Of a stretch of 64,000 bases of DNA, positions 5,329-62,761 are shown piece after piece. The stretch lies in NCBI GenBank assembly GCA_964514375.1, contig CAZEQH010000002.1, positions 3,742-67,741 of the forward strand, read 5' to 3'. The notes beneath the pieces were generated by a model. It was not told the origin of the DNA. It made no database searches and saw only the letters and a program-made list of their open reading frames with translations. The DNA comes from an uncultured Candidatus Saccharibacteria bacterium. Its GTDB lineage: Bacteria > Patescibacteriota > Minisyncoccia > Minisyncoccales > JANBVM01. Each line of letters begins with the position of its first letter. Position 1 is the first letter of the stretch. Position numbers and translations under genes: made by a program.

Positions 5329-5931
5329 TCACCATTTTAATAAAAACTCATGGCAGTTGTCTCCCCTGAAAACGCATTTCGTTTCTTCGCAGGTTGCCTC
5401 TTTACCTACTATCATCTGGATGGCCTTGGAAAAATATCCGGAAAAAATTTGGCAGTACAGAGGATGGGCGCTGAAATCTTCCACTCTCAGCACAATAATG
5501 TTTTTCTCTTTATCGCGCATTACTATCTTTAAATGCCCCAGATCTCCTCCTTTTTCCCAGAGATTATCAGCTTCCTTGGTGAGTTTTTCCAGGGAAATAA
5601 AATATTTCATAAAGAGTTTGATAAGGAGAGAGAATTTTACTCCGAATTTCCCTATCTCCCTGAATTTTTCATCAGGATAGCGAAACAGTTTTTTTATTGT
5701 TATCAGGGTTGCCAACTCCATTCTCAGCGGATAAAAATCCATGGCTTTTATTTCTTTGTATTGTACGGGATAACCGGCTTCGGCCATGGCCCTTTCCAGC
5801 CTTTCTAATCCTTCCGGGCCCTCTTTTTCATAAATAAAATCGGCGTGAGCCTTCATCCCCATGCCTCTAACCTGGCCTTTGGCTTCTTCTAATTTTTTTG
5901 TTTCTTCTTCTGAAAATTTTTCCTGAGACAT
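5329..5931 (-). CDS. uncharacterized ~200-aa paralog family, member 1 of 9 (C-terminal CxETKCxxxGDxxHEFxxxW motif)
   Basis: Shares the family motifs: VRG near residue 20, EGxEGLExLE, MDFYP, KLFMKYF, and C-terminal TCEETKCVFRGDNCHEFLLKW. Confidence 0.7.
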   Translation of the reverse strand: MSQEKFSEEETKKLEEAKGQVRGMGMKAHADFIYEKEGPEGLERLERAMAEAGYPVQYKEIKAMDFYPLRMELATLITIKKLFRYPDEKFREIGKFGVKFSLLIKLFMKYFISLEKLTKEADNLWEKGGDLGHLKIVMRDKEKNIIVLRVEDFSAHPLYCQIFSGYFSKAIQMIVGKEATCEETKCVFRGDNCHEFLLKW

Positions 5932-6040
5932 AATGCTTTTATAATTTTAGCAGAAATAATCATTCCCATACAGGCTTTGAGTTTGTAAAATGATACAATC
6001 TCTTATAAAATACTAATAATAAATACTGTTTGAAAATCTT

Positions 6041-6262
6041 GTGTTTAATTTCTTTCCTTTACTCTTTGCTATAATTCTTATTGCCTACGCTTGGTATTCT
6101 TTTTCCATAATCTACCATCTCATTAGATTTGGAATTGGTAAACATCCAAAGGTCCTTGCATTAGTCTTCTTTTTCGGCTCTTTTTTGTTATTTGCCCTTT
6201 TCTTGTTTTCTTACAACAGGGTTGATTGGAAACAAATGCTCGAATTTCTATTCCATAGTTAA
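6041..6262 (+). CDS. small hydrophobic membrane protein (2 TM), hypothetical
   Basis: 73-aa ORF with two hydrophobic helices. No homology recognised; could be spurious. Confidence 0.3.
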   Translation: MFNFFPLLFAIILIAYAWYSFSIIYHLIRFGIGKHPKVLALVFFFGSFLLFALFLFSYNRVDWKQMLEFLFHS

Positions 6263-6272
6263 TTTTTCATCT

Positions 6273-6797
6273 ATGTCTATTTTTTCAGCATCAACCAACA
6301 GTTTCCGCAGAGAGGCGCCGGAAGAAAAAACAATCCTGGTTACCAGGAAACACGAGATAAATTTACTTATGCCTCTCTATACTGCTTTGGGGATAGCCTT
6401 AATACCATTTTTAATTTATCTTTCCATCAAATCTCAATCCTGGTACTACGTTTTTTCCGCCCTTTACTGGTCGCTGTACTTCCTTTATCTGCTCGTGCTC
6501 TGGAGCTTGGCTTTTTATAACGTCATGATTTATTTCCTCAATAACGTTGTCGTGACCGACAGGAGGGTGATAGAAAATCACCAGCGAGGATTTTTCAATC
6601 ACGAATCAAACGAACTGGAGCTGGATAAAATCCAGGATATCTCTGTTAAGATTGCGGGTTCTGTGGCTCATTTCCTGGATTTTGGAGATATAGAAATCCA
6701 GAGCGCAGGGACTGATAGAAAGTTTATTTTTACCAGGCTTCCTAATCCCGAGAAGATAAAAGAAACCATAATGCAGCTGAAAATGAAATCCGGATGA
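6273..6797 (+). CDS. bacterial PH-domain (YdbS/YdbT-like, DUF304) membrane protein
   Basis: Two N-terminal TM helices followed by VVTDRRVIENHQRGFFNHESNELELDKIQDISV ... DFGDIEIQSAG. Start chosen at an internal Met to avoid overlapping the upstream small ORF; the true start is uncertain. Confidence 0.5.
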   Translation: MSIFSASTNSFRREAPEEKTILVTRKHEINLLMPLYTALGIALIPFLIYLSIKSQSWYYVFSALYWSLYFLYLLVLWSLAFYNVMIYFLNNVVVTDRRVIENHQRGFFNHESNELELDKIQDISVKIAGSVAHFLDFGDIEIQSAGTDRKFIFTRLPNPEKIKETIMQLKMKSG

Positions 6798-6817
6798 TTT
6801 TTAATTTACCGCAGAAG

Positions 6818-6846
6818 AAAAACGGAGCCTGGAGCTCCGCTTTTAA
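6818..6846. terminator. bidirectional intrinsic terminator between convergent genes
   Basis: AAAAA-CGGAGC-ctgga-GCTCCG-C-TTTT hairpin with an A-tract upstream and a T-tract downstream. Confidence 0.55.
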
Positions 6847-6861
6847 TTTGTGAAAAGATTT

Positions 6862-7413
6862 CTATCGGCCTTCTGCAGCGAAACATGCCGCGCACACCGG
6901 TTTGTAGACATATGTTCCATCATCCGGCACCACGGAGGGAAGACCTCTTAATATGGGATTGGAATCCTTGAATATCTGGGTATATACAGCTTTCCTGCTG
7001 CCGCATTTTTCGCACAAAGATTTTCTATATTCCACTTTTTCGGGATTTAACGTTAAAAGATTTTTGATAATAAGAAAGGTTTGCCCGCGGTAATCTTTAT
7101 CCAGGCCGGAAGCCACTATCGTCATATTGTCCTCCATCATATCCTTGACGGCCTTATAATCATCAGGTTCAAACATATGTATTTCGTCCAATCCTATTAT
7201 AGCTCCTTTCATTTTTGGTATTTCAAAAAGACTCTTGATTTTTTTAGCTTTCATGTAGACTCCTTCTCGGGATACTATGAGGTCGTCTCTTACGTTCCTG
7301 AGGGGCTGGAACAGTGAAAAGGGAATGTTATTTTTCTGGAGTGCTCTAAAACAGGAAATCAATCTCAGGGATTTGCCGCTTTTCATCGGTCCCAGGATTA
7401 AATGCAGTTTCAT
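6862..7413 (-). CDS. tdk: thymidine kinase
   Basis: P-loop ILGPMKSGKS, IGLDEIHMF (Walker B), C-terminal zinc-ribbon cysteines (CEKCG ... CAAC). Confidence 0.8.
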   Translation of the reverse strand: MKLHLILGPMKSGKSLRLISCFRALQKNNIPFSLFQPLRNVRDDLIVSREGVYMKAKKIKSLFEIPKMKGAIIGLDEIHMFEPDDYKAVKDMMEDNMTIVASGLDKDYRGQTFLIIKNLLTLNPEKVEYRKSLCEKCGSRKAVYTQIFKDSNPILRGLPSVVPDDGTYVYKPVCAACFAAEGR

Positions 7414-7419
7414 AAAAAT

Positions 7420-8508
7420 TTAATTGATTAAACCGATTATTTTTTCCTCGATTTCAGAAAGCGGATTATAAATAATCTTTTTGGCAGAATAATTCAAGGA
7501 AGAGTGTATTAATCCGTGTACCGTCGCACACCCTTCCTGGTCTGTGACATTAACGGCTCCCGTAGGCCTTCTGAATATAGGTTTTGCCCCATTCCTTGCG
7601 CTTTTTCTGTCTTCTTCTCCAAGAAAGCTTTCTGAGACGTCTTTATCCTCCATTCCCCCGAAGTCCGGAAGGAAAATAAAATTAATTTCTTCAAAGAGTA
7701 AATTGCTGCAGGCAGTGTCCTTGACGGCATTCCTTAATCTTTTATTTTCCTTCAGGAAAGAACTTACGATGTCAAATCTGCTTGTAAACGAAGCAGTGCT
7801 GCTGTATTCCTTTTTGTCAATTTCCAGGAGTCGGTTTTTTTTGTCGGGAAAAAAATATTTTCCTTCCCTCTCCTTTTCCAGCCGGCTTATGAACTCTGCT
7901 GCTCTGGTTATGTCTTTTCCTGTAAAATACTTGCCTAAAAGTCCTTTTTGCGATTCAGGAAGGGAAATAATATAAAGATATTTTGTTTCATCTCTCGATA
8001 GGTTCTTTTCCAATAATGCCTGCAGCTTGTCCATCAGCTGAAATCTTTTATCATGGGAAAGCCCTTCTTCTTTGATTACTTCAATGCGGATGGTGTCTTT
8101 ATCGGCGCCTATAATGGAGATTCCGCTCCTTTTTTCTCCCGAAGGGAACTTTCTTTCCCACTCAACCATCGTTTCTTTACTATCCTTGAATTTCTTGAAA
8201 TAAAAGGCAGCAATAATTATCTCAAAAATTACCAATTGCTGCTCCCACCATCCGGAACTGCTTAACAGTTTACTCAATATTTTAGGAAGATACTTTTCTT
8301 TGTCTCTTTCCTTGATAATATTGATTGCCGCAGTAAGTCTAGGATAGATGAGAGGGTGGCAGAGAGAATTGAAGAGAGGATGCCTCATCCCGCTATCTCC
8401 TTCTCCCATTATCAAATCAAGATACTTTTTTGGCAGCCTGTTCTCAAACAATTCTATATTGGTTCTCACCTTTTCTTCGTCGGTTTTTTGTTTTCCATCC
8501 ATTGGCAT
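7420..8508 (-). CDS. hypothetical protein (362 aa)
   Basis: Long ORF with good coding appearance and no recognisable motif. Confidence 0.45.
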   Translation of the reverse strand: MPMDGKQKTDEEKVRTNIELFENRLPKKYLDLIMGEGDSGMRHPLFNSLCHPLIYPRLTAAINIIKERDKEKYLPKILSKLLSSSGWWEQQLVIFEIIIAAFYFKKFKDSKETMVEWERKFPSGEKRSGISIIGADKDTIRIEVIKEEGLSHDKRFQLMDKLQALLEKNLSRDETKYLYIISLPESQKGLLGKYFTGKDITRAAEFISRLEKEREGKYFFPDKKNRLLEIDKKEYSSTASFTSRFDIVSSFLKENKRLRNAVKDTACSNLLFEEINFIFLPDFGGMEDKDVSESFLGEEDRKSARNGAKPIFRRPTGAVNVTDQEGCATVHGLIHSSLNYSAKKIIYNPLSEIEEKIIGLIN

Positions 8509-8510
8509 AT

Positions 8511-8545
8511 TATAACAATTAGAAAAGGCGATTTGAAATCGCCTT
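8511..8545 (-). terminator. intrinsic terminator after greA
   Basis: AAGGCGATT-tga-AATCGCCTT hairpin followed on the minus strand by TTTTCTAATTGTT. Confidence 0.5.
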
Positions 8546-8575
8546 GACGTTAATGAGGAACTTTCAAACGCTTTC

Positions 8576-9028
8576 TTATTCCACTTTAATAATCTTATAA
8601 ATCTTGTCTCCTTCCGGCGTTTTCACCTTAATTTTGTCGCTTTTCTCTTTATTCAGGAGAGCGCTGCCCAAAGGAGACTGGTACGATATTTTTCCCGCCA
8701 TAATATCTACCTCTTCCGGAGCTACTATCTTAAACTTGTTTTCTTCTCCGTTTGACCCGACTAAAACAGTAGAGCCGACTTGGACCCTGCCATTTTCTTT
8801 CTTGCTGACGACCTTGGCCTGGGAAATTATTTCTTTCAGCTCTATAATCCTTCCTTCCACAAAGCCTTGGGCATCTTTGGCTTCGTCATAGGCTGCGTTC
8901 TCGCTGAGGTCCCCGAAAGCAGCCGCATATTTTATCCTTTCGGATATTTCCTTTCTCTTTACTGTTTCCAGATATTCCAACTCCTCCTTCAGTTTTTTTA
9001 GTCCTTCTGCTGTAAAATATTTTATCAT
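8576..9028 (-). CDS. greA: transcription elongation factor GreA
   Basis: N-terminal coiled coil with LSENAAYDEAKDAQGFVEGRI and a C-terminal FKBP-like domain; 150 aa. Confidence 0.85.
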   Translation of the reverse strand: MIKYFTAEGLKKLKEELEYLETVKRKEISERIKYAAAFGDLSENAAYDEAKDAQGFVEGRIIELKEIISQAKVVSKKENGRVQVGSTVLVGSNGEENKFKIVAPEEVDIMAGKISYQSPLGSALLNKEKSDKIKVKTPEGDKIYKIIKVE

Positions 9029-9135
9029 GTTTGATTTTTGGATAAAATTTGTATCGTATATATTAACAGATTATTTTAAAAAATAAAATGTCCGGCCTTC
9101 ATGCGCCGGAAGATTATTTCTTATTTTCGAAACTT

Positions 9136-9732
9136 TTACCACTTTATACTGAACTCGTAATAATTATCCCCTCTATCTATTGATTTTGTCAAATCGCATT
9201 TAGCAGGTTTTCCCGTTACCATCTTTACTATGCTGGAAAAATATCCCGTAAGGTCCTCAAAAAAGATGGAGTGAAGTCTGAAATTCTCCAATCTCACCAC
9301 AGCACGATTTTCCTCCGGTTTATAATCATGTATTTTTAATTCCCCTACCGTGTAGTATTTGCTCCATATCCTCGGCACTTCTTTAAGAAGTCTCTCTACG
9401 GAAAAAAAGTATTTCATAAAAAGCTTGATGATAAGGGATACCTTGGCGTTATTGGCTCCCAGTTCTCCCATTTTTTCTTTGGAATAGTTAAAGAGTTTTT
9501 TGATAATTACTAGATAGAGACCCCATAATTGCAGAGGGTAAAAATCCATAGCCCTTATCTCTTCGCGCTTTATGGGATGTCCTAACTCGGCCATAGTTTT
9601 TTCTAGTTTCTCAAGACCTTCCTTCCCCTCTTCCTTCAATATGAAATCCGATGTAGTTTTGAGGGCCACTCCCCTTACTTCTCCCGTAGCTTTATTCAGC
9701 TCCTCTATTTCTTTTTCTGTTATTAATTTCAT
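9136..9732 (-). CDS. uncharacterized paralog family, member 2 of 9
   Basis: VRGVALK, EGKEGLEKLE, MDFYPL, KLFMKYF, C-terminal KCDLTKSIDRGDNYYEFSIKW. Confidence 0.7.
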   Translation of the reverse strand: MKLITEKEIEELNKATGEVRGVALKTTSDFILKEEGKEGLEKLEKTMAELGHPIKREEIRAMDFYPLQLWGLYLVIIKKLFNYSKEKMGELGANNAKVSLIIKLFMKYFFSVERLLKEVPRIWSKYYTVGELKIHDYKPEENRAVVRLENFRLHSIFFEDLTGYFSSIVKMVTGKPAKCDLTKSIDRGDNYYEFSIKW

Positions 9733-9781
9733 AAAGGTTATTGTATTTTAAAGTCTTTCAGAGCAAAAGACAAACTAATCC

Positions 9782-10381
9782 TTACCATTTGAATAAAAAT
9801 TCATGATAGTCGTCTCCGTTAAAAACGCATTTTGTTTCCTCGCAGTTTACCCTTGATTTCACTACCATCTGCAGAACGCTGGTAAAATATCCTACCAAAT
9901 CCTGACAGTGAACTTTATGGATTTTGAAATTACTAAGCCTTAAAACTGCTCGCCTCTTTTGCTTGTCCGATTCCGTCACCTCTAAATCTCCTACGGTATA
10001 ATACTTCCTCCACATTTCAGGCACCACTTTCTCTACCCTGTCTAATGATACAAAGTGGCTTATAAAGAGCCGCATGATAAAAGATACCTTGGACTCAAAT
10101 TCCCCCATCTTTTCCATCATTTTTTCGTCGTACCCGAACATTCTTTTGGCGATGAGCTGGACGATTCCCACCAGGCCGATGGGATAGAATTCCATGGATT
10201 TCGCCTCCCTGAGCTTAAAGGGATAATCCAATCTTCTTAACTCCTCTTCTAATCTTTCCAGTCCCTTTTCTCCCTCCTGTTTAATTAGAAATTCAGCCTG
10301 GGTCTTGAAAGCGACCCCTCTGACTTTCCCCTTTATACGTATGAGTTCGTCAAATTCTTCTTTTGAAATTGGGCGGTCCAT
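9782..10381 (-). CDS. uncharacterized paralog family, member 3 of 9
   Basis: VRGVAFK, EGEKGLERLE, MEFYP, C-terminal NCEETKCVFNGDDYHEFLFKW. Confidence 0.7.
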   Translation of the reverse strand: MDRPISKEEFDELIRIKGKVRGVAFKTQAEFLIKQEGEKGLERLEEELRRLDYPFKLREAKSMEFYPIGLVGIVQLIAKRMFGYDEKMMEKMGEFESKVSFIMRLFISHFVSLDRVEKVVPEMWRKYYTVGDLEVTESDKQKRRAVLRLSNFKIHKVHCQDLVGYFTSVLQMVVKSRVNCEETKCVFNGDDYHEFLFKW

Positions 10382-10389
10382 AAGATTGC

Positions 10390-10653
10390 TTAATCTTCCG
10401 CAGAATCCTCCTCGTCTGTATCTTCATAATCTTGGCCGAAGTCAGAATCTATTTCCTTCTTTACCTCTTCGAATTCGTTTTCTATCTCTTTTAACCTTTC
10501 CTTGCTTTCCTTTATCAGGGCGGAGGCCTCCTTGACCTTTTTCAGCCCTTCTTCAATATCTATATCTTCCTGCGCCTCGAACCATTCAGCAATTTGGGAA
10601 AGTTTTTCCAAATTACGGCTCAGGCCCTGTTTCTCTCCTTTTTTATTAGGCAT
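10390..10653 (-). CDS. xseB: exodeoxyribonuclease VII small subunit
   Basis: 87 aa, LSRNLEKLSQIAEWFE ... EEGLKKVKEA helical core, acidic C-terminus. Lies immediately downstream of xseA. Confidence 0.75.
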   Translation of the reverse strand: MPNKKGEKQGLSRNLEKLSQIAEWFEAQEDIDIEEGLKKVKEASALIKESKERLKEIENEFEEVKKEIDSDFGQDYEDTDEEDSAED

Positions 10654-10654
10654 G

Positions 10655-11911
10655 TTATTTCGTTTTTTTAATTTTTCTTATATTTGACTCCAAGGTTCCG
10701 TCTGAAACTTGAACCTCAACATCTTCTCCCATTTTAACATTCTTTACGCTTTTGATAATCTTTCCGTTCATTCTTGCTATACTGTAGCCGATTTTGAGCT
10801 GTCGGGCCGGGTCATTTGATAGTATCATCCTCGAAAGATTATCGATTTTTTCCCGGCCCTCTTCCAAATTGCGGGAGAAAAACTTGGTCAGGGAGACATG
10901 AAAGGAGGCAAATTTCTCTCTCTTAATCTTCAATTCCCTCTTTATCCTTGAAATAAATACCGGCAGCAGACTCTCTGTTTTGCGATAAACCATCAGTATG
11001 GAAAGAAAAGCATTTTTTATGCCGTAGACAGATTTGAGCAGCTGATTTTTAGCCTTAGAAAGAACGCCTGAATAAAGCTCTATAATGTTCCCTTTGTAAT
11101 TCTCTATTTCAAATTTCGCTCTTTTCCAAGGTTCTGCTATAAGATTAGCTGCCGCCGTGGGGGTGGAAACTGCCTCGTCGGCCGCCAATGCTATCAGAGG
11201 AACGTCCTTGTCGTGGCCGATAGCAGCGATGACGGGTGTAGGAAAGGCAACCACCTCCCTGACTAGTCTTTCATTATTAAAGGCCATCAGAGATTCCAAG
11301 GAACCCCCTCCCCTCATAATTACCAAAACATCGATGTCGTATTTCTTAAAAGAAGAGATGCAGGCAAGCAAATCCCTGACTGCCTGCTGACCTTCCACTC
11401 TGGCATCCATCAGCATTATCTTGAATCCAAACTGTCCCAGATTATTTGTGAAGTCGTGGATAACAGCCCCTGTCTTCGAAGTAATTACCCCTATCCTCTG
11501 GATGTACTCGGGGAGAGATCTTTTCCTCTCTTTTTTAAAGACTCCCTCTTCTTCCAGCTTTTTCTTGAGTTCCTCGTACGCTTTTTTCAGTGCGCCTTCG
11601 CCCACCAGCTCCACGGAAGCAGTCTGGAAACTTAATCTTCCGCTTTTGGCATAGATGGAAGGGTATCCTGAAATAATTACCTCCAGACCTTCCTTTAACT
11701 CGATACCGAAGAGATTATAAGTGGAGCGCCACATGAAGCAGTTGAGCACACCATCGTCTTTATTGTCTTTCAGGGTAAAGAAAAGGTAACCTGACCTTAG
11801 GTTGAATTCGGTTACTTCTCCGACGATTCTGGCCTGAAATTTCTGCAGGCCTGAATTAACCAAATCGATATATTCGGCTACTGAAAGGGGCTCCCGGGAA
11901 TTATCATTCAT
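10655..11911 (-). CDS. xseA: exodeoxyribonuclease VII large subunit
   Basis: N-terminal OB fold (GEVTEFNLRSGYLFFTLKD), central catalytic region GHDKDVPLIALAADEAVSTPTAAA, C-terminal coiled coil. Confidence 0.85.
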   Translation of the reverse strand: MNDNSREPLSVAEYIDLVNSGLQKFQARIVGEVTEFNLRSGYLFFTLKDNKDDGVLNCFMWRSTYNLFGIELKEGLEVIISGYPSIYAKSGRLSFQTASVELVGEGALKKAYEELKKKLEEEGVFKKERKRSLPEYIQRIGVITSKTGAVIHDFTNNLGQFGFKIMLMDARVEGQQAVRDLLACISSFKKYDIDVLVIMRGGGSLESLMAFNNERLVREVVAFPTPVIAAIGHDKDVPLIALAADEAVSTPTAAANLIAEPWKRAKFEIENYKGNIIELYSGVLSKAKNQLLKSVYGIKNAFLSILMVYRKTESLLPVFISRIKRELKIKREKFASFHVSLTKFFSRNLEEGREKIDNLSRMILSNDPARQLKIGYSIARMNGKIIKSVKNVKMGEDVEVQVSDGTLESNIRKIKKTK

Positions 11912-11912
11912 T

Positions 11913-13064: not shown

Positions 13065-13083
13065 ATACTTGAATTATAGCAGA

Positions 13084-13110
13084 TAAAAAACTGAGAAAAA
13101 ATCTCAGTTT
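13084..13110 (-). terminator. intrinsic terminator after the FKBP gene
   Basis: ACTGAG-aaaaaat-CTCAGT hairpin with a T-tract on the minus strand. Confidence 0.5.
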
Positions 13111-13136
13111 CAGGGAGGATTTTATAAAAAATCAAA

Positions 13137-13577: not shown

Positions 13578-13652
13578 AATATTCTTGAAATTATCTTTCT
13601 TTTACTTTACCAGGAAAATTTTTTTTGACAATTCGATTCGTTGAATTCCACA

Positions 13653-14252
13653 TTACTTATTCCCTTTCTCAAGATACAGCTGGTGGTATTCTTCGGCTCG
13701 ATAAAAGTCTGGGGCGGGTACTATCTCCGTTACTATGGGGTCCCTGAACCGGCCCGATTTCTCCAGTTCCTTTTTGGATTCTTCGGCCAGTCTCTTCTGT
13801 CCCTCGTTGTAGTAGAAAATGACCGAGCGGTACTGGCTGCCTACATCCGGACCCTGGCGGTTGGGCGTAGTGGGAATGTGGTTATTCCAGAAGACATCCA
13901 GTAGTTCACGGTAGGAAATGACCGTCGGGTCGAACCTGATGTGCACGGTTTCTGCATGCCCGGTATCACCGCCGCAAACCTGCTCGTAGCTGGGATTTTC
14001 CGGTCTGCCTCCCATATATCCCACCTCAGTAAATTCCACCCCCTTAACCTGTCTGAATGTTTCTTCCGCTCCCCAAAAACATCCCATGGCGAAGGCGGCC
14101 TCAGATAAATTCTTAGTATCTCTTTTTTGATTGTTCATATAATAAATGAAAGACAATCCTGCGATCAGAATTAAAAATATTAAGAGGATTATCTTTCTAT
14201 AATTGACTTTATGTTTTTCAGTCCCAGCTGATGACGAATTCATGACGATCAT
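13653..14252 (-). CDS. msrA: peptide methionine sulfoxide reductase MsrA (membrane-anchored form)
   Basis: Active-site GCFWG motif, EVGYMGG, C-terminal EYHQ. The N-terminal TM helix overlaps the upstream paralog by 35 nt; an alternative start at about 14138 removes the overlap. Confidence 0.85.
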   Translation of the reverse strand: MIVMNSSSAGTEKHKVNYRKIILLIFLILIAGLSFIYYMNNQKRDTKNLSEAAFAMGCFWGAEETFRQVKGVEFTEVGYMGGRPENPSYEQVCGGDTGHAETVHIRFDPTVISYRELLDVFWNNHIPTTPNRQGPDVGSQYRSVIFYYNEGQKRLAEESKKELEKSGRFRDPIVTEIVPAPDFYRAEEYHQLYLEKGNK

Positions 14253-14829
14253 CCCCTTTGAAGGTACATTTTATTTCTTTACATTCAACTTTCCTGGCTC
14301 CCATGGCAATCTTCACGAATCCGGAAAAAATACCTTCTATATAGGGACAGAAGACAGGGTCAACATCAAAACCTGTAAGGGTGGCGGTCAGGGTTTTCTT
14401 TTTTTCGTCTATCTTTTCAATATTCACCTTTCCTACGGTGACGAATTTATCCCAGAAGCTGGGCGCTTTATCAAAAAAAGTTTTCCTATCTATCAAGAAA
14501 GAACCTATAAAAAGCCTAAGTATGGCGGAAAACTTTGCCACGTTTCTACCCATATCTCTCATTTTATCATCAGACATATTCAGAGCCTTTTTGGCAGACA
14601 ACAGAAAGATAGCTCTAAGGCCGTTGGGATAAAACTCCATAGAGCTTATCTTTTCCAATTTCAAAGGGAAACCTAAGTCTTTCATTTCTTTTTCCATTTT
14701 TTCGATTCCTTCCCTTCCACTTTCTCTCATGATGAATTTGACGTCGGATTTCATTACTATTCCCCTTACCTTTCCCGGAGAATTTTCATATAATTTTTTG
14801 GCTTTTTCTTTTAAAATTATTTTTTCCAT
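14218..14829 (-). CDS. uncharacterized paralog family, member 4 of 9
   Basis: VRGIVMK, SGREGIEKME, MEFYP, C-terminal VECKEIKCTFKGDDRHEFVISWD. Confidence 0.7.
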   Translation of the reverse strand: MEKIILKEKAKKLYENSPGKVRGIVMKSDVKFIMRESGREGIEKMEKEMKDLGFPLKLEKISSMEFYPNGLRAIFLLSAKKALNMSDDKMRDMGRNVAKFSAILRLFIGSFLIDRKTFFDKAPSFWDKFVTVGKVNIEKIDEKKKTLTATLTGFDVDPVFCPYIEGIFSGFVKIAMGARKVECKEIKCTFKGDDRHEFVISWD

Positions 14830-14836: not shown

Positions 14837-15436
14837 TTACCATTTAATTAAAAATCTGTGGCAGTCCCCTCCTTTATGGATGCAGGTTATTTCCTCACAC
14901 GTCCCCTCGGATTTGATTATCATCTGGAGAGAGCTGAGGAGATAGCCCTTTAATATTTCGCAGTGGAGAGGATAAAAATAATAGTCGTCCAGCCTGAGTA
15001 TTATTTTGTGCTCTTCCGGAAGATATTGTTCAACGTTCAGGTTTCCAATAGAAAGATGTTTTCTCCAGAGTTTGGGAAGCTCTTTGAGAACCCTGTCTAT
15101 AGAGAAGAAATACTTAATGGCTATTCTTATGATCAGCGAAACCTTGGTGTGAAATTTGCCCATTTCTTGAAATTTTTCATTATCATAATGAAAAAGTCTT
15201 TGAATGGCCACCATCATAACTGCCAAGGTACCCAGGGGATAGAATTCCATAGGCCTCATTTTCGAAAACTTAAGAGGACAGCCCGCCTCGGCCATTGTTT
15301 TTTCCAGGAGCTTCAATCCCTCCTCCCCTTCTTCTTTTACAATAAAATCTGCATAACTCTTCATTCCTACCGCGCGTATTTCTCCCTTAAAATTCATTAG
15401 TCCAGCGGCTTCTTCCTTTGAAATTACCGTATTCAT
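14837..15436 (-). CDS. uncharacterized paralog family, member 5 of 9
   Basis: IRAVGMK, EGEEGLKLLE, MEFYPLG, C-terminal TCEEITCIHKGGDCHRFLIKW. Confidence 0.7.
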   Translation of the reverse strand: MNTVISKEEAAGLMNFKGEIRAVGMKSYADFIVKEEGEEGLKLLEKTMAEAGCPLKFSKMRPMEFYPLGTLAVMMVAIQRLFHYDNEKFQEMGKFHTKVSLIIRIAIKYFFSIDRVLKELPKLWRKHLSIGNLNVEQYLPEEHKIILRLDDYYFYPLHCEILKGYLLSSLQMIIKSEGTCEEITCIHKGGDCHRFLIKW

Positions 15437-15502: not shown

Positions 15503-15530
15503 AAAAAGGCGCCTCGAAGGCGCCTTTTGG
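15503..15530. terminator. bidirectional intrinsic terminator
   Basis: AAAAA-GGCGCC-tcgaa-GGCGCC-TTTT: perfect 6-bp GC stem flanked by A- and T-tracts between two minus-strand genes. Confidence 0.6.
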
Positions 15531-44575: not shown

Positions 44576-44581
44576 TTGATT

Positions 44582-56497: not shown

Positions 56498-56500
56498 AGA

Positions 56501-57304
56501 TCAGTCAATTTCGTACACGATATTCACGCTGATGGTTATCATATTCTCTCCGCTTTGCACTTGGGGAGCTGCTTCAACCCCTGCACCTCCCATGCCGTAG
56601 GCTGCCTGATCCATCTTGTATAAGGCGGGATAAACTCCGCTCTCACTGAAACTGCTGATTCTTACCAGTTTGACTCCTAATTGAGATGCCAGGACGCTGG
56701 CTTTTGCCTTGGCCTGATCTATCGCTTCCTTGCGAGCTTCATCTTTTGCCTTCTCTTCTTCTTCAGGGTCAAGTGTAAACTGCAGGGCTCCCACCTGATT
56801 GGCTCCCTGGTCGGTAGCGCCTTGAATGATATCCCCTATCTTGGTTAAATCCCTGATTTTTACTTGTAGGGACTGGTCAACCTCGTATCCCACCAGAATC
56901 CTTTGGCCTCCGGGAGGATAACGGCCGTAAATATCCGGCTGGCGATATTCGTACTGCGGGTAAATATTGAAGGCGGTAGTTTTCAAGTCTTTTTCTTCTA
57001 CTCCCTGTCCCTTAATGAAGCTTATAACACCGTTCATCTTGGCGGTGTTATCGGCTAAGGCCTCTGCTACCGTCTTTTTTTCGGTAGTGACCGAAACCGT
57101 AGTGACAGCCAGGTTAGGTTTTACGAAAACTTCCCCGGAAGCCGAAACATTAATGGTGTTTCTGCTTTCTATGTCCTGGCCTATATACCTGCCCTGCCTG
57201 AACTCATTGGCTGTTTTTACCCCGAAGAAAACTATGAGTACCAATAAAAACAGGGTAAAAACTTGAGAAACGGATGATATAAGCTTTTCTTTTTGTTCGT
57301 CCAT
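56501..57304 (-). CDS. SIMPL-domain (DUF541, YggE-like) membrane-anchored protein
   Basis: N-terminal TM, then the two-lobed SIMPL pattern (VSASGEVFVKPNLAVTTVSV ... YEYRQP ... ). Confidence 0.6.
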   Translation of the reverse strand: MDEQKEKLISSVSQVFTLFLLVLIVFFGVKTANEFRQGRYIGQDIESRNTINVSASGEVFVKPNLAVTTVSVTTEKKTVAEALADNTAKMNGVISFIKGQGVEEKDLKTTAFNIYPQYEYRQPDIYGRYPPGGQRILVGYEVDQSLQVKIRDLTKIGDIIQGATDQGANQVGALQFTLDPEEEEKAKDEARKEAIDQAKAKASVLASQLGVKLVRISSFSESGVYPALYKMDQAAYGMGGAGVEAAPQVQSGENMITISVNIVYEID

Positions 57305-57338
57305 ATTTTTTAGAAATTAAATATTGCGGCGACCTTTT

Positions 57339-57947
57339 TTACCACGTAATAAGGAATTCGTGATATTCGTCTTTTTTATGGCTGCATTTGACTTCCTTGC
57401 ATTTCAGATTTTCCACTTTCAGTACCATCTTAGCTATGGAGGCAAAATATCCTTCCATACATCTGCAAAAGATTGGGTGAAGATTGAAATTTTTTATCTT
57501 CATGATTATGTATTTTTTCTCTTCGTTGTATTCTGAGAACTCCAATTCTCCCTCGGTCCAATATGTCCTCCACATTTGCTGAGCTTTTTTCATCACCTCA
57601 GGCAGAGAATATATGTACTTCGAAAAAAGTCTCACTACCAAGGATATCCTAGGATGAAAGTAGCAAACGTTCCTGATTTCTTCGTCGCCGGAATTCAGAA
57701 CTTTCTTGATGGCCAATAATGATACCGCTCTCATACCGCCCGGTATGAAACCCATTTCTTTTATGTTTTTGTATTTCATTGGATACCCCAACCTTTCCCA
57801 CTCCTGTTCGATTTGTTCTAAAACTTCCTTACCCTTAGTTCTTATGATATATTCCCCGTCATGTTTGACATTAAAACCCCTTGTTTCAAAAGAGGAATTT
57901 TCTATTAATGCTTTCGCGATTTTTGGGTTAATTGTTTCTTCTCCCAT
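57339..57947 (-). CDS. uncharacterized paralog family, member 6 of 9 (divergent)
   Basis: Start trimmed to MGEETIN; the longer ORF overlaps member 7. C-terminal LKCKEVKCSHKKDEYHEFLITW; MGFIPG in place of MDFYP. Confidence 0.6.
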   Translation of the reverse strand: MGEETINPKIAKALIENSSFETRGFNVKHDGEYIIRTKGKEVLEQIEQEWERLGYPMKYKNIKEMGFIPGGMRAVSLLAIKKVLNSGDEEIRNVCYFHPRISLVVRLFSKYIYSLPEVMKKAQQMWRTYWTEGELEFSEYNEEKKYIIMKIKNFNLHPIFCRCMEGYFASIAKMVLKVENLKCKEVKCSHKKDEYHEFLITW

Positions 57948-57955
57948 AATTTTAT

Positions 57956-58573
57956 TTACCAGGTTAACACGAATTCGTGGTATTCGTCCCCCTTGAATAC
58001 GCATTTTGTTTCCCGGCAAACTACCGGCTCGCCGGTAATCATTTGGAGTACGCTGGCAAAATATCCTATCAGGTTCTGACACTGTAAAGGATGGAGTTTG
58101 AAGTTTTTAAGATGGACAATTGCTTCCTTTTTTCCCGGTTCAAACTTGGCAATTTCTAAATCTCCTATGGTATAACTTTCTCTCCAGATTTTTGGGGCTT
58201 CCTTGGCTACTCTCTCTGGGGAGAAAAAATATTTCATGAACATTCTTATCAGGAAAGATACCTTGGGTTCGAATCTTCCCATCTCCTGGAATTTTTTATC
58301 ATCATAATGGAACAGTCTTTTTGAACCCGACAGCACCAGAGCCTCCAGCCATACGGGATAAAAATCCATGGTCTTTATTTCTTTTAATTTTACAGGATAG
58401 CCGATATCGTTTATCTGTCTCTCAAGTTCTTTGATTCCTTCCTCTCCTTCTTCCTTAAGGATAAAATCAACCTCTCCCTTGATGGCGATTCCTCTGGCTT
58501 CACCGGAAATATTCTTTAGTCTTTCAAATTCTTCTTTGGAAAAGATTTGCTCTTCCATATTTTTATTCATCAT
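57956..58573 (-). CDS. uncharacterized paralog family, member 7 of 9
   Basis: ARGIAIK, EGEEGIKELE, MDFYPV, C-terminal VCRETKCVFKGDEYHEFVLTW. Confidence 0.7.
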   Translation of the reverse strand: MMNKNMEEQIFSKEEFERLKNISGEARGIAIKGEVDFILKEEGEEGIKELERQINDIGYPVKLKEIKTMDFYPVWLEALVLSGSKRLFHYDDKKFQEMGRFEPKVSFLIRMFMKYFFSPERVAKEAPKIWRESYTIGDLEIAKFEPGKKEAIVHLKNFKLHPLQCQNLIGYFASVLQMITGEPVVCRETKCVFKGDEYHEFVLTW

Positions 58574-59178
58574 TTTTTCCAGTTTACCACGAATTCATGA
58601 TATGAGTCTCCTCGCGACATGCATTTCCTCTCTTCCGAAACAACATCTTTATTGAGAACCATCTTAATAATGCTTATCAGATAGCCTTCTACAGTCAGGC
58701 AGTGGATAGGGTGTAGTTCGAAATCTTCTATCCTGACAACTATGTAGCGTTCCTGCTTATTGATTTCCGTGACACTCAAATGCCCTCTGGTATAATACTT
58801 TCCCCAGAATTTAGGCGCCTCTTTGGCAATAGTCTCCATGGAAACGAAATATTTCATAAACAATCTGACTATCAGTGAAACCTTGGAATTGAACTCTCCC
58901 ATCTTAATGAAATCATCCCTTTTAAAGTGAAACAATTCTTCCATTAAAAGAAAGGTGATGGCCTCCAGCCCCACCGGATAAAAATCCATTTCCTTAAACT
59001 CCTCGTATTTTATGGGAAATCCCAATTCCGAAGCTCTCTCTTCTAATTTTAACAAACCTTCCTTTCCCTCTCTATGGATTATATATTCCAAATCTCCCTT
59101 AATGGAAATTCCTCGTGTTTCACCAGGAATATTCATGAACTCTTCTGCTTTTTCCTTTGTAATTTTTTCAGGTTCCAT
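58570..59178 (-). CDS. uncharacterized paralog family, member 8 of 9
   Basis: TRGISIK, EGKEGLLKLE, MDFYPVG, C-terminal VVSEERKCMSRGDSYHEFVVNWKK. The first Cys of the motif is replaced by Ser. Confidence 0.7.
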   Translation of the reverse strand: MEPEKITKEKAEEFMNIPGETRGISIKGDLEYIIHREGKEGLLKLEERASELGFPIKYEEFKEMDFYPVGLEAITFLLMEELFHFKRDDFIKMGEFNSKVSLIVRLFMKYFVSMETIAKEAPKFWGKYYTRGHLSVTEINKQERYIVVRIEDFELHPIHCLTVEGYLISIIKMVLNKDVVSEERKCMSRGDSYHEFVVNWKK

Positions 59179-59227
59179 CTTTTAACGTATTAAAAAAGAT
59201 TTTGTAACAAAAAAGTTGCCGTAAAGT

Positions 59228-60025
59228 CTAAGAATTAAGGAATTCTAATTGGAATTGCTTCGTTTCTATTCCGGAAAATTTATCCTTTTGAGGATAGTTA
59301 CTGATTTGAGAAAGCCAGTGGCGGTTGGAGAATTCCCACAGCTTTTTAGCCGTCAGGAAAGCTTCAACATACAGTTCCCTTTTCCCTGTCTCATAAAGTT
59401 CACATACTCCTTGGGGCTTTTCCCACTTGTGTCGGCAGCTTTTTTTGTTTTTGCTTATTTTCATTTCTCCGGATTTCACTCTTTTCTCGGCTCCGCATAA
59501 TTTGCAGGATTGAAATTGATCTATCTTCAGTATCCAATAGGTTTTGGCTTTCTTTTTGGCACTTTCATTATAGGCGTTGAAATAAGCTGCTGTCTGTATA
59601 AAATAATCGTCCCATATTTGTCTGCTGGTTTTTAGGTCTAATATCCCCATCTTCCCGTCTACCTCAGCCAAAACATCAAGGGTTCCGCTGTAAGAATGGT
59701 CTTTGCTGAACACTCTTTTTTCTATGCCGTGCAACCTTATCCTGTGAGCCCTGAACCAATTCAGGAAAGCATCGACGGATGGCTTTACATCCGCGGAAGT
59801 TTTCGGAATCCTTCCCATTAATATTGTCTCAATGATATCGTGAACGTCTTTGCCCCACTCCGTAAGTCTTTTTCTTTTCCTCTGCATGGAAGCGAAACTT
59901 TCCTGGTTAGCCAGCCATCTTTCCAGGCCTGGTTTTGCGATTACTTTGCAAATCGAAGTAACCCTGGGATACCATAAACCTTCTACTTCGTAACCGTTTC
60001 TCTTCTTAAAATAATTGGCCGACAT
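59228..60025 (-). CDS. Cas4/RecB-like PD-(D/E)xK nuclease family protein with Cys cluster (no CRISPR array nearby)
   Basis: GTLDVLAEVDGKMGILDLKTS (D..E.K core), QTAAYFNAY (QxxxY), N-terminal Cys plus C-terminal CKLCG ... C ... C. Confidence 0.5.
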   Translation of the reverse strand: MSANYFKKRNGYEVEGLWYPRVTSICKVIAKPGLERWLANQESFASMQRKRKRLTEWGKDVHDIIETILMGRIPKTSADVKPSVDAFLNWFRAHRIRLHGIEKRVFSKDHSYSGTLDVLAEVDGKMGILDLKTSRQIWDDYFIQTAAYFNAYNESAKKKAKTYWILKIDQFQSCKLCGAEKRVKSGEMKISKNKKSCRHKWEKPQGVCELYETGKRELYVEAFLTAKKLWEFSNRHWLSQISNYPQKDKFSGIETKQFQLEFLNS

Positions 60026-60063
60026 ACTGTTATTTTAGCAGAAAATTACCTCTTTGGCGACCC

Positions 60064-61074
60064 TTAATTCTCCACTTTTCCCTTAGCCGCCAGCTGGCCG
60101 CAGGCAGCATCAATGTCCTGGCCGAATCGGAACCTTTCAGTTACCGCTACTCCCTTGTGTTTTAGTATTTCTTTGAACTTCCTTATCTTGGAGGCCGGAG
60201 AGGCTTTAATATCGGGCACAACCGGGTTATATGAAATGAGATTTACAAAATAAAGGGGTTTCTTCATCAGCAAGGTTAATTTCTCAGCACAGTCTTCAGA
60301 ATCATTGAAATCTTTTATCATAATATATTCAAACATAACCCGCCTCTTCGTTTTCTCTATATAAAAATTCACCGCCTCCAATACATTGGAAATGGAGTAT
60401 TTTTTATTAACGGGCACGAGTTGAGTGCGCAGTTCATCTGTGGGGGCATGGAATGATATGGCAAGATTCACCTCCAAAGGGTCTGAGGCCAGTTTCCTGA
60501 TGCCTTCCGTGATGCCGACCGTGGAAATGGAAAATCTTCTCGCTCCCATATTCAAGCCTTCTTCCTCGTGCATAGTCTTCACGGCTTCCATGACGTTTTC
60601 ATAGTTTAGGAAGGGTTCTCCCATTCCCATAAAGACTACGTTGGTTACACTCTGATTGAATTCTTTCAGATATCGTGAAAAAAGCACTACCTGTTCTACT
60701 ATTTCATAAGATGCAAGATTTCTTTTGAAATTCATGCGTCCCGTGGCACAGAACAGGCATCCCAAAGGGCATCCTACCTGAGAGGAAACACAGACCGTAT
60801 TCCGGCCGTCTTTATGTCTCATTAAAACCGATTCTATTTTGAGGCCGTCTTCCAGAGTGATAAGCGCCTTGGCAGTATCCTCTTTCTTAGATTTAAAAAG
60901 GCGATATTTAATATCAAGCGGGCATTGTTCATTTAGTTTTTCCCTCAAAGAAAAAGGGAGGGTGGTGGCATCCTTCCAGTCGCTTATCAAATCATGGAAT
61001 ATCGCTTTTTTTATCTGTTTTAGGCGATATTCAGGTTCTTTTTTTAATATTTTCTCAAGGTTGGCTAAGTTCAC
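60064..61074 (-). CDS. rlmN: 23S rRNA/tRNA adenine-C2 methyltransferase RlmN (radical SAM)
   Basis: CPLGCLFCATG radical-SAM CxxxCxxC motif, C-terminal GQDIDAACGQL. Confidence 0.9.
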   Translation of the reverse strand: MNLANLEKILKKEPEYRLKQIKKAIFHDLISDWKDATTLPFSLREKLNEQCPLDIKYRLFKSKKEDTAKALITLEDGLKIESVLMRHKDGRNTVCVSSQVGCPLGCLFCATGRMNFKRNLASYEIVEQVVLFSRYLKEFNQSVTNVVFMGMGEPFLNYENVMEAVKTMHEEEGLNMGARRFSISTVGITEGIRKLASDPLEVNLAISFHAPTDELRTQLVPVNKKYSISNVLEAVNFYIEKTKRRVMFEYIMIKDFNDSEDCAEKLTLLMKKPLYFVNLISYNPVVPDIKASPASKIRKFKEILKHKGVAVTERFRFGQDIDAACGQLAAKGKVEN

Positions 61075-61086
61075 GTATCTTTCTTT

Positions 61087-61308
61087 CTATTTGATAATTT
61101 CAAAGATTTTATTTGGTTTCTTCGAACCGCGCACCAGGCGTACCTTTGAAGGCAGAATCCCCAGATAAGAAGCAAGAAGTTTTACAACTGCCCTGTTCGC
61201 TTCGCCCCGCACTGCCTTTTCCCTAACTTCTATCCTGTAGCTTTCTTCCGTTTTCCTCGTTACGCTTTCTTTATTTGAATCGGGGAAAACCTTAACCTTT
61301 ATAAGCAT
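61087..61308 (-). CDS. DUF167 (YggU-like) protein
   Basis: MLIKVKVFPDSNKESV ... RGEANRAVVKLLASYLGI: DUF167 pattern. Start trimmed to the internal Met. Confidence 0.6.
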   Translation of the reverse strand: MLIKVKVFPDSNKESVTRKTEESYRIEVREKAVRGEANRAVVKLLASYLGILPSKVRLVRGSKKPNKIFEIIK

Positions 61309-61309
61309 A

Positions 61310-61630
61310 TCAGCGGATAGGAGTGCCTGCGGCCACTTCTTTGTCCGGCTGCAGCAGTACGGGTTTACCGTCTGCATTGGCAGCCAAAAGCATGCCGCGG
61401 CTTTCCAAACCAAAAATGGTTCTCGGCTCCAGATTAGCCGCTACCACAATACTTTTACCTATCAGGTTCTCCGGCTCATAGTACTGAGCTATGCCTGCCA
61501 CAAGCTGCCTTTTCTCATCCCCCACATCTATATCCAATTTCAGCAGCTTATCGGAGCCATCTATTCTTTCTGCTTTAATAACCTTGGCTGTTCTCAGCTC
61601 TAATTTTTGGAAATCTTCAAACTTTATCAT
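61310..61630 (-). CDS. tRNA-binding protein (CsaA/Trbp111-like EMAP domain)
   Basis: LELRTAKVIKAERIDGSDKLLKLDIDVGDEKRQLVAGIAQYYEPENLIGKSIVVAANLEPRTIFGLESRGMLLAA. Confidence 0.8.
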   Translation of the reverse strand: MIKFEDFQKLELRTAKVIKAERIDGSDKLLKLDIDVGDEKRQLVAGIAQYYEPENLIGKSIVVAANLEPRTIFGLESRGMLLAANADGKPVLLQPDKEVAAGTPIR

Positions 61631-61634
61631 GTCT

Positions 61635-62141
61635 CTACAAAGATTTTAATTTTTTAATTATTAATTTAAACCAATAAGCATATTTATCGGGATTATCCTC
61701 CACATCCTTTTCCAGTTCCTGCAGATCCACCCATTTCCACGACTCTACTTCCTCGGGATTGGGAGAAGGCGTGCCGTCGAATTTTCCGACAAATACATGG
61801 TCAAATTCGTTTTCAATCATATTTCCCACCTGCGTCTTATAGATAAAAGTAAATGCTTCTTTCAATTCACAGGCAATTCCCATTTCTTCCTTAAGCCTCC
61901 GCTTGGCTTCTGCAACAATATCGCAGTTGGGTCTGGGATGGGAACAGCAGGTATTAGACCATAGGCCGGGAGAATGATACTTTTCCTTTGCTCTTTTCTG
62001 CAGCAGTACCTGGCCCTTGTGATTGGAAATCAGAACGGAAAAGGAGCGGTGCAGCTTACCTTCCTTATGCACCTGCATCTTTCCTCCCACCCCTATTTGA
62101 TGATTCTGCTCGTCAACAATGATTATTTCCTTTTTTTCCAT
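61635..62141 (-). CDS. idi: isopentenyl-diphosphate delta-isomerase, type 1 (Nudix)
   Basis: LHRSFSVLISNHKGQVLLQKRA ... WSNTCCSHP, with the Nudix glutamates EEMGI. Confidence 0.85.
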   Translation of the reverse strand: MEKKEIIIVDEQNHQIGVGGKMQVHKEGKLHRSFSVLISNHKGQVLLQKRAKEKYHSPGLWSNTCCSHPRPNCDIVAEAKRRLKEEMGIACELKEAFTFIYKTQVGNMIENEFDHVFVGKFDGTPSPNPEEVESWKWVDLQELEKDVEDNPDKYAYWFKLIIKKLKSL

Positions 62142-62152
62142 AATCCGCTCTT

Positions 62153-62761
62153 CTACCAGCTTATTATAAATTCATGACGGCTGTCTCCTTTGTGTATGCA
62201 TTTGGTTTCCCGGCATGAGGTTTCAGTGCCTACCACCATCCTCACCACGCTGGCAAAATAACCTTCCAGGCTGATGCAGTGATCCGGATGTGCTTTGAAG
62301 TCTTCCAATACCATAACGCCTTTTCTGGCTTCCTGATTAATTTCCTGTACTTTGAGATTACCTGCTGTATAATTCTTCTTCCACATAGCGGAAACCTGCT
62401 TGGCGGCTGTTTCCAGGGAAATAAAGTACTGCATAAACACGCGCACCAGCAGGGAAGTTTTGGCCTCAAAAGCCCCCATTTCCCTTATCTTATCGTCATC
62501 GAAATCAAATATCCTGCGAGCCGCTACAATGGTAGCTGTTTCCAGGCCTAAGGGATAAAAGTCCATTTCCCTGATGTCTTTATAGCTGATGGGATGGCCT
62601 GCCTCGGCCATAACTCTTTCCAGTTTTTCCACTCCTTCTACGCCTTTTTCCTTGATGATGAAATTAGCATGGCTTTTAATCGCAATACCCCTGCTCTCCC
62701 CCGGAATCTTCATTATTTCAGTGATTTCATTTTTTAGTTCATCTAAAGTGTTTTGCTGCAT
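62153..62761 (-). CDS. uncharacterized paralog family, member 9 of 9
   Basis: SRGIAIK, KGVEGVEKLE, MDFYPLG, C-terminal SCRETKCIHKGDSRHEFIISW. Confidence 0.7.
   Translation of the reverse strand: MQQNTLDELKNEITEIMKIPGESRGIAIKSHANFIIKEKGVEGVEKLERVMAEAGHPISYKDIREMDFYPLGLETATIVAARRIFDFDDDKIREMGAFEAKTSLLVRVFMQYFISLETAAKQVSAMWKKNYTAGNLKVQEINQEARKGVMVLEDFKAHPDHCISLEGYFASVVRMVVGTETSCRETKCIHKGDSRHEFIISW

Follow-up and report, generated by a model that had tools for sequence, protein, structure and literature searches.

The 64,000 nucleotides (nt) of contig CAZEQH010000002.1 analysed here, referred to as the window, encode nine diverged proteins of about 200 amino acids (aa) that are stand-alone, cytoplasmic, single-domain members of the V4R/H-NOX-like (Bet3-like) superfamily. 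By sequence and by the positions of their predicted zinc ligands these proteins are V4R proteins (COG1719), and by full-length architecture they are most like H-NOX. They constitute a distinct, under-annotated subfamily of the already known V4R domain, in which a His replaces the fourth Cys, and a lineage-specific, retained expansion in Candidatus Nealsonbacteria-type Patescibacteria. With a probability of about 0.6, we interpret them as single-domain V4R/H-NOX-like, possibly dimeric, zinc-stabilised binders of small hydrophobic ligands, acting as sensors or carriers.

Paralogs are numbered 1 to 9 in their order along the window, and residue numbers refer to the copy at 57956-58573 (paralog 7). 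A hidden Markov model (HMM) built from the nine copies was searched, with filters off, against all six-frame stop-to-stop open reading frames (ORFs) of at least 40 aa in the window. This search recovered exactly nine copies, with E-values between 1e-83 and 1e-96, and no tenth copy or fragment was detected in any of the six frames, the next-best ORF presenting an E-value of 0.017. The nine ORFs lie in five loci on the minus strand, exactly at the coordinates provided by a preliminary description made from the letters of this DNA, and their summed length of 5,457 nt amounts to 8.5% of the window, in line with the earlier estimate of about 8%. Pairwise protein identity among the copies ranges between 29% and 48%, DNA likeness is limited to short stretches with 65-82% identity, and no long high-identity DNA tracts were found between the nine copies, bearing out the notion of old duplications put forward in the preliminary description. 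Since the guanine-cytosine (GC) content of the copies (37-44%) matches that of the window (41.8%), and their DNA similarity is confined to short stretches, the copies appear to be compositionally native and without recent gene conversion. The same-strand disposition of the family had been singled out as a feature of the expansion. All nine genes do lie on the minus strand, but the window (1-64000) presents a strong orientation bias, with about 65 of its 78 ORFs on that strand, and the arrangement is uninformative because the chance that five independent loci share that strand is considerable (p ~0.4). Most initiation codons of the family genes present no obvious Shine-Dalgarno sequence, and AAAATT or AAAAGC precedes several of them.

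Searches against Pfam identified V4R (PF02830) in eight of the nine copies, with E-values between 1.2e-7 and 0.067 and always over the C-terminal ~40 residues, and in 52 of 73 relatives at E <= 0.01; no other Pfam family was matched. The match is weak for each individual copy and consistent over the family. The preliminary description had guessed at V4R, and the finding of PF02830 as the sole family match in both the window copies and their relatives indicates that the guess was right. The family, which that description could not name, can hence be referred to V4R/COG1719 ('predicted hydrocarbon-binding protein'), in agreement with one Joint Genome Institute (JGI) annotation. Its presentation as an uncharacterised family, which a match to a known domain was held to undermine, is in this way partly undone. 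The DUF2378/TIGR02265 and heme-sensor models suggested alongside V4R were searched in Pfam and NCBIfam and returned no match. The best NCBIfam match was MsvR (NF053755), with weak scores of 12.9-20 bits against a cutoff of 220 and an alignment restricted to the C-terminal V4R part of the model (positions 150-236); an N-terminal helix-turn-helix (HTH) domain is absent from the window copies. Neither the nine copies nor the 73 relatives matched Pfam TRAPP_Bet3 (PF04051), a PDB-sequence profile search with the nine-copy alignment returned nothing meaningful, and neither a signal peptide nor a membrane anchor was visible in the sequences of the nine copies. Literature searches found no paper tying V4R to Nealsonbacteria or to other bacteria of the Candidate Phyla Radiation (CPR).

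An AlphaFold2 model of paralog 7, obtained with the 73-sequence alignment, presented a predicted local distance difference test (pLDDT) score of 94.3 and a predicted template modelling (pTM) score of 0.90. The modelled architecture comprises an N-terminal helical lobe followed by two beta-hairpins flanking a long helix (H162-180). Two independent fold searches with this model agree, and the model displays both the two-layer alpha/beta arrangement of the Bet3-like fold and the H-NOX fold, with H-NOX as the best full-length fold match (~170-190 aligned residues, spanning both lobes). The H-NOX, V4R and Bet3 folds have already been published as belonging to one superfamily (Podar 2008; PMC10933270). 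V4R domains are marked by conserved glycine pairs (GxxxG) in helices alpha2 and alpha5 (Podar 2008), and the helices deemed equivalent by inspection in the family contain a nearly invariant first Gly (G99 in H4, G170 in H7), with a small, variable residue four positions on (P, A, S or T at 103; S, G, A, K or T at 174).

In XylR, the zinc ligands of the V4R domain are C149, at the start of helix alpha6, and E172, C175 and C183 in the following hairpin; zinc is bound by C155, C181 and C189 in MopR, and likewise in DmpR. The XylR A-domain was taken from plasmid pWW0, where the search probe matched it at 100%. Alignment with hhalign placed family residues 164-198 on XylR 148-182 (P = 0.0011), in a register that sets C165 on C149, E188 on E172 and C191 on C175, and in which H199, if the register is extended, meets C183 in the column just after the aligned block. 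The ligand spacing (23/3/8) is identical in the family and XylR, as is the placement of the ligands in the secondary structure, and both share the local motif E-T-x-C-x3-G-D-x2-[C/H]. The spacing also fits the MopR ligands and the C206/C232/C240 set of MaMsvR. The four residues are conserved in 93% (C165), 94% (E188), 94% (C191) and about 89-90% (H199) of the sequences, and the family therefore probably carries a structural Cys-Glu-Cys-His zinc site. H161, four residues before the helix Cys (HPxxC), is conserved in 73% of the sequences and has no equivalent His in XylR; as judged from the alignment, it may serve as a fifth ligand of the metal, as an alternative one, or as a residue of the pocket.

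These results retain the idea of a metal site advanced in the preliminary description, as the C-terminal cluster corresponds by homology with XylR to the structural zinc site of V4R, and they redefine its composition. The Cys/Cys/Asp/His set proposed there includes two variable positions that are not homologous to ligands, namely C186 (64% conserved, and often I, V, S or A) and D196 (74% conserved), and omits both E188 and C165, the latter located at the start of helix H7 in an HPxxC motif that had not been listed. The C-terminal motif, described as strictly conserved, has only its F and W invariant among the nine copies. In the copy at 9136-9732 it reads C..L.TKS...GDNYYEF, with Ser replacing the second Cys and Tyr replacing the His; Ser takes the place of the first Cys at 58570-59178, and the motif is altered to GGDCHRF at 14837-15436 and to KKDEYHEF at 57339-57947. 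Nor is the cluster itself invariant, since the copy at 9136-9732 lacks all four predicted ligands. The N-terminal and middle motifs of that description amount to a loose consensus, in which the invariant residues are R, K, G, E, P, M, F, P, S, W and G.

The predicted tetrad is intact in eight of the nine window copies and in 234 of 268 relatives. In a set of 291 sequences, non-redundant at 90% identity, 255 retain all four ligands, and one, two, three or four ligands have been lost in 12, 9, 8 and 7 sequences, respectively. Losses are correlated, with two or more ligands missing in 24 of the 291 sequences and pairwise Fisher p values for co-loss between 1e-9 and 1e-18, which overstate independence because the sequences are phylogenetically related, a relatedness that weakens the test. 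Loss at distant conserved columns (W130, P73, R27, S118 and E51) is unassociated with loss of the tetrad.

A plausible working mechanism for these proteins can be outlined by analogy with their relatives, from which we infer zinc binding, a ligand-binding cavity and dimerisation. Each protein is modelled as an N-terminal helical lobe and a C-terminal alpha/beta lobe. A structural zinc would be held by C165, at the start of H7, and by Glu188, Cys191 and His199 of the C-terminal beta-hairpin, stapling the hairpin to helix H7 as in XylR, DmpR, MopR, PoxR and Thor-TRAPPC3. This stapling would shape an internal cavity suited to a small, probably hydrophobic or amphipathic, molecule. Cavities of the same fold bind palmitate in TRAPPC3 and phenols in PoxR, with zinc tethering the sheet to the helix and thereby forming the cavity (PMC10933270), and the cavities of DmpR and MopR likewise bind phenols. 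Because they lack an output domain, the window proteins could operate as carriers or buffers of a metabolite, or as sensors acting in trans through protein-protein contacts. V4R, Bet3 and MsvR proteins are dimers, assembled via N-terminal elements, and the window proteins would probably also act as homo- or heterodimers. Dimerisation is hinted at by these dimeric relatives, by tandem fusions of the domain and by the overlap of the genes for paralogs 8 and 7, at an ATGA sequence (58570-58573) in which the stop codon of the former overlaps the start codon of the latter, with a second ATG directly after. This overlap suggests translational coupling.

Natural two-domain fusions of the family (405-440 aa) were detected on related CPR-like contigs. 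They include P0121 (405 aa; locus L024, 4062-5279), P0122 (410 aa) and an ORF at 1077-2399 of locus L018. Such fusions provide a Rosetta-stone hint, at the sequence level, that paralogs may pair physically. A distant relative, P0246 (locus L023, 8113-9177), combines an N-terminal receiver domain (PF00072, 30.9 bits) with a family domain in which the tetrad is degenerate; its contig is not CPR-like, presenting a GC content of 47.6% and genes for a sulfatase, a GH109 protein and a GlcNAc 2-epimerase. When P0121 and the C-terminal domain of P0246 were used as queries, hardly anything beyond the queries themselves was retrieved.

The distribution of the family was addressed through a word-indexed search for relatives, a separate exhaustive profile search and a genome scan with a 12-sequence alignment. 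The word-indexed search identified 128 relatives, nearly all of them 197-205 aa long. The few relatives with organism names belong to Candidatus Nealsonbacteria or Paceibacterales, and one carries the aforementioned JGI annotation, which reads 'predicted hydrocarbon binding protein'. The profile search returned 1,142 clusters (50% identity) at E <= 1e-3 and 323 at E <= 1e-30. The genome scan yielded 20 loci; it sampled only loci matching two peptide patterns, and the copy numbers it provides for genomes are hence lower bounds. They amount to at least four family loci in the genome of Ca. Nealsonbacteria CK12Hparc1 (complete, 689 kb), at least one in that of isolate ER8H12parc2 (complete, 648 kb), and at least five loci with at least 13 copies, as identified with the family HMM, in the metagenome-assembled genome CAZBMQ01. 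The same HMM revealed same-strand clusters of two to five copies in the scanned loci. In one locus of CAZBMQ01 (L022, 9995-10626) a copy is broken up into two ORFs that overlap each other and match HMM positions 1-94 and 93-199, and represents either a frameshifted pseudogene or an assembly error.

Housekeeping proteins of the window share 43-82% identity and synteny with those of CK12Hparc1, and the window hence stems from a relative of Nealsonbacteria. For every copy in the window, the best outside relative presents 51-87% identity, versus 37-48% for the best paralog within the window. Because outside relatives are closer than window paralogs, the genes were duplicated before these genomes diverged, and the resulting subfamilies have been retained. 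As the subfamilies are old and have been kept across genomes, the paralogs are probably specialised for different ligands or partners. Positions specific to individual subfamilies (30-42, 95-103 and 164-181) are found mainly in H4, in H7 and towards the N-terminus of H2.

Several observations weigh against the interpretation of these proteins as zinc-stabilised ligand binders. Only paralog 7 reaches the V4R gathering score (32.1 versus 31 bits), with the other eight copies falling below it, and the hhalign comparison with the single XylR sequence, spanning 35 columns with a probability of 20.8%, is modest. The tetrad is missing in one window copy and in about 8% of the relatives, and zinc is hence not essential for every member. 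The subfamily-specific positions could mark a protein interface rather than a pocket, going by their placement along the sequence. Lastly, when the neighbours of all loci were clustered, no universal partner gene emerged across them, and the conservation of context was limited to synteny among close relatives.

The same site could alternatively function as a thiol/zinc redox switch, in which Cys oxidation would free the zinc or form disulfides, and the ensuing change in conformation would signal oxidative stress. Such a mechanism has been put forward for the V4R domain of MsvR, a regulator of methanogens that is also the best NCBIfam match of the window proteins, and the functional C206, C232 and C240 of MaMsvR sit at the positions of C165, C191 and H199 (spacing 26/8). 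Their fourth ligand is, however, a His instead of a Cys, leaving only two thiols in the site, and the site of XylR, DmpR, MopR and PoxR is regarded as purely structural. Paralog 4 is located immediately upstream of msrA, encoding methionine sulfoxide reductase, but this adjacency involves one copy only. Given also that the proteins have no DNA-binding or other output domain, and that one redox signal poorly explains nine diverged paralogs, a redox switch appears to be an unlikely account of the family.

A second alternative is that the paralogs form a Bet3/TRAPP-like hetero-oligomeric scaffold, or a membrane complex handling lipids, involved for instance in the uptake or trafficking of host lipids by an episymbiont unable to produce them itself. 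They would associate into heterodimers or larger assemblies in the manner of Bet3, Trs31 and Trs33. The homologous cavity of Bet3 binds palmitate, and the tandem pairs and triplets of genes, the ATGA overlap and the two-domain fusions suggest physical pairing, although the fusions are rare (about three in the 150 best cluster representatives). Nealsonbacteria attach to methanogens and have no lipid biosynthesis, and a precedent exists in Ignicoccus hospitalis, the host of Nanoarchaeum, whose seven V4R proteins, including a membrane-localised one, have been called an 'unusually large' set. The window proteins, in turn, match no Pfam TRAPP_Bet3 model, and their sequences reveal neither a membrane anchor nor a signal peptide. 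We consider a complex of this kind improbable. The same low likelihood is attached to a related proposal, namely that the paralogs are Bet3/TRAPP-like homo- or heterodimeric carriers that capture, sort and traffic lipids, isoprenoids or hydrophobic metabolites from a host that would probably be a methanogen. If true, the family would represent a major part of the handling of scavenged membrane components in a lipid-auxotrophic ultra-small bacterium, and a bacterial parallel to the V4R expansion of Ignicoccus and to eukaryotic TRAPP.

It is highly improbable that the proteins are enzymes, such as C-S bond hydrolases akin to the ATC hydrolases, with the Cys/Glu/His cluster as a catalytic metal site. 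Catalysis could take place at a Cys-Glu-Cys-His site in which one position is open or exchangeable, and Galperin et al., who grouped ATC hydrolases with V4R, HNOB and MetOD1, brought up the same possibility for the last of these, a related domain. The homologous site in solved V4R structures is, however, fully coordinated and structural, members without the whole tetrad are retained, including one in the window, and no match to the Pfam ATC_hydrolase model was found. A role as heme-based H-NOX-type sensors of nitric oxide or oxygen was rejected as the least probable of all, the likeness being at the level of fold only: no Pfam HNOB match was found in the nine copies (E <= 1) or the 73 relatives (E <= 0.01), hhalign to Tt H-NOX (checked against PDB 1u4h) gave a probability of 0.2%, and the heme-related features of H-NOX (the proximal His on helix alphaF, H102 in Tt, and YxSxR, Tt Y131/S133/R135) have no counterpart in the family, in which no column of the equivalent of the proximal-His helix (residues 90-135) presents His in more than 35% of the sequences, the sole conserved His are H199 (about 89-90%) and H161 (73%), and the stretch equivalent to YxSxR, in a register inferred from the order of secondary structure elements, reads N-F-x-L-H-P. 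PADLOC and PHROGs gave no credible match, and a role in defence or in phage biology was also rejected.

Our preferred reading of the window proteins as ligand-binding V4R proteins places them close to, and apart from, several known systems. Among these, V4R itself (PF02830/COG1719), comprising the sensors XylR, DmpR, MopR and PoxR and the stand-alone MJ1460 (PDB 2oso/2osd), is the sole sequence-family match. The window proteins share with the sensors the homologous tetrad positions, with the identical 23/3/8 spacing, and a G-Y motif five residues after the helix Cys, and stand-alone V4R forms of ~150-200 aa are known. They depart from them in the His used as fourth ligand instead of Cys and in the absence of an AAA+ or HTH output domain. 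They also differ from V4R proteins in their longer N-terminal helical lobe and more H-NOX-like full-length architecture, in the scores of most members, which lie under the Pfam gathering threshold, and in the presence of at least nine copies in a very small genome. H-NOX (HNOB, PF07700) presents the best full-length fold likeness, over both lobes, with an undetectable sequence relationship, and the family differs from it in its predicted zinc site of V4R type, which is not a defining feature of H-NOX.

A similar hybrid character has been described for MetOD1, an output domain of methanogen response regulators with HNOB-like predicted secondary structure and the conserved Cys of V4R (Galperin et al. 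2018, PMC5847659). The receiver fusion of P0246 resembles the REC-MetOD1 regulators of methanogens, and the attachment of Nealsonbacteria to methanogens makes a host link suggestive. MetOD1 is archaeal, is fused to a receiver domain and contains three Cys, in contrast to the bacterial, stand-alone window proteins, which combine two Cys with a Glu and a His. MsvR has its redox-sensitive Cys at the same three positions and is matched over the C-terminal alpha/beta lobe, but the scores remain at 12.9-20 bits against the cutoff of 220 and the window proteins lack its HTH. TRAPPC3/Bet3 has the same fold, paralogous pairing subunits and a hydrophobic ligand cavity, and I. hospitalis offers an analogous lineage-specific V4R expansion, with seven copies, in one partner of a host-symbiont pair; unlike these systems, the family shows no Bet3 sequence match, is bacterial instead of archaeal or eukaryotic, and has more copies relative to genome size. 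The Myxococcus DUF2378/TIGR02265 proteins, which we take to belong to the V4R/H-NOX-like superfamily, resemble the family in the concept of a lineage-specific set of paralogous, stand-alone proteins of ~180-200 aa, and differ in that none of the nine copies gives a Pfam or NCBIfam match to them at E <= 1.

The individual copies differ in their ligand residues, in their V4R scores and in their immediate neighbours. Paralog 1 (5329-5931, minus strand; 200 aa) has the predicted zinc ligands C160/E183/C186/H194 intact, with an E-value of 1.2e-92 for the family HMM and 1.9e-4 for Pfam V4R, and is followed 9 nt downstream by an apt-like phosphoribosyltransferase gene and then by a PNP-family phosphorylase gene. 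Paralog 2 (9136-9732, minus; 198 aa) is degenerate, with all four predicted ligands replaced (F158/L181/S184/Y192). Its ORF is intact and keeps the rest of the fold signature (R, G, MDFYP, W and G), and it has no Pfam V4R match, yet the family HMM matches it with an E-value of 9e-93. It thus appears as a natural, predicted zinc-less member in tandem with a canonical copy, paralog 3 (9782-10381, minus; 199 aa; C159/E182/C185/H193 intact; V4R E = 1.3e-4), which lies 49 nt upstream of it and downstream of xseA. Paralog 4 (14218-14829, minus; 203 aa; C161/E185/C188/H196 intact; V4R E = 7e-5) is the most divergent copy, sharing 32-37% identity with the other eight. At its 3' end, about 35 nt (14218-14252) also form part of the longest msrA ORF; the true start of msrA may lie downstream, or paralog 4 and msrA may be translationally linked. 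Paralog 5 (14837-15436, minus; 199 aa) retains C159/E182/C185/H193 in spite of its altered hairpin motif (V4R E = 0.067), and is located 7 nt upstream of paralog 4.

The gene for paralog 6 (57339-57947, minus) encodes 202 aa from the ATG at 57947, and a longer ORF starting at a GTG reaches 58082, overlapping paralog 7. Its ligands C161/E185/C188/H196 are intact, and it belongs to the 'ETRGFNVKHDGEY' subfamily, with an 87%-identical ortholog (P0027). Paralog 7 (57956-58573, minus; 205 aa; predicted zinc ligands C165/E188/C191/H199), the copy used for the model and the numbering, is separated from paralog 6 by 8 nt; an exact look-up of its sequence returned no record, probably as a result of a different start in the public gene call. 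In paralog 8 (58570-59178, minus; 202 aa; V4R E = 7e-5) the tetrad C160/E183/C186/H194 is intact and Ser181 replaces the non-ligand Cys. Paralog 9 (62153-62761, minus; 202 aa; C162/E185/C188/H196 intact; V4R E = 1.2e-5) lies 4 nt downstream of a class I S-adenosylmethionine (SAM) methyltransferase gene and 11 nt upstream of a NUDIX-domain gene, and has a 79%-identical ortholog in the same gene context in locus L010.

The genes flanking the family are unrelated housekeeping genes, including those for the aforementioned phosphoribosyltransferase and phosphorylase, thymidine kinase, greA and xseA. Other flanking genes are msrA and those encoding DUF763, FKBP, Germane-domain, SIMPL, PD-(D/E)XK nuclease and MBL-fold hydrolase proteins, together with a radical-SAM enzyme, a NUDIX-domain protein, a SAM methyltransferase and an HhH-GPD glycosylase. 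Scans for promoters and terminators stayed close to background, and no operons could be delimited from them. Palindromic, GC-rich hairpins that carry T-runs on both strands, resembling bidirectional terminators, are found at 15504-15528, just upstream of the pair formed by paralogs 5 and 4, and at 9091-9110, just downstream of paralogs 3 and 2; these two pairs might be separate transcription units, with the overall terminator scan remaining at background. Two further conserved ORFs on the minus strand were noted: a 362-aa ORF (7420-8508) between the thymidine kinase gene and greA, without a confident Pfam assignment, and a 265-aa ORF (59228-60025) with only a sub-threshold PD-(D/E)XK match, which recurs beside family clusters in loci L005, L015 and L024.

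Patescibacteria are host-attached bacteria with genomes of ~0.6-1 Mb that lack lipid biosynthesis and the synthesis of most cofactors, and that sense, bind and distribute small molecules which they scavenge. The allocation of 8.5% of a 64-kb stretch to a single family, the presence of at least 13 copies in a relative and the retention of subfamilies represent a large investment for such a genome, and mark these proteins as candidates for metabolite handling or sensing. It is this expansion in a very small genome that makes a known domain notable. The Pfam V4R model under-detects this clade. The analysis provides a concrete predicted zinc site, a natural predicted zinc-less control copy in the same genome and candidate interaction pairs. 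If the link to the V4R domains of methanogen MetOD1 or MsvR holds, one may ask whether the host was the source of the family.

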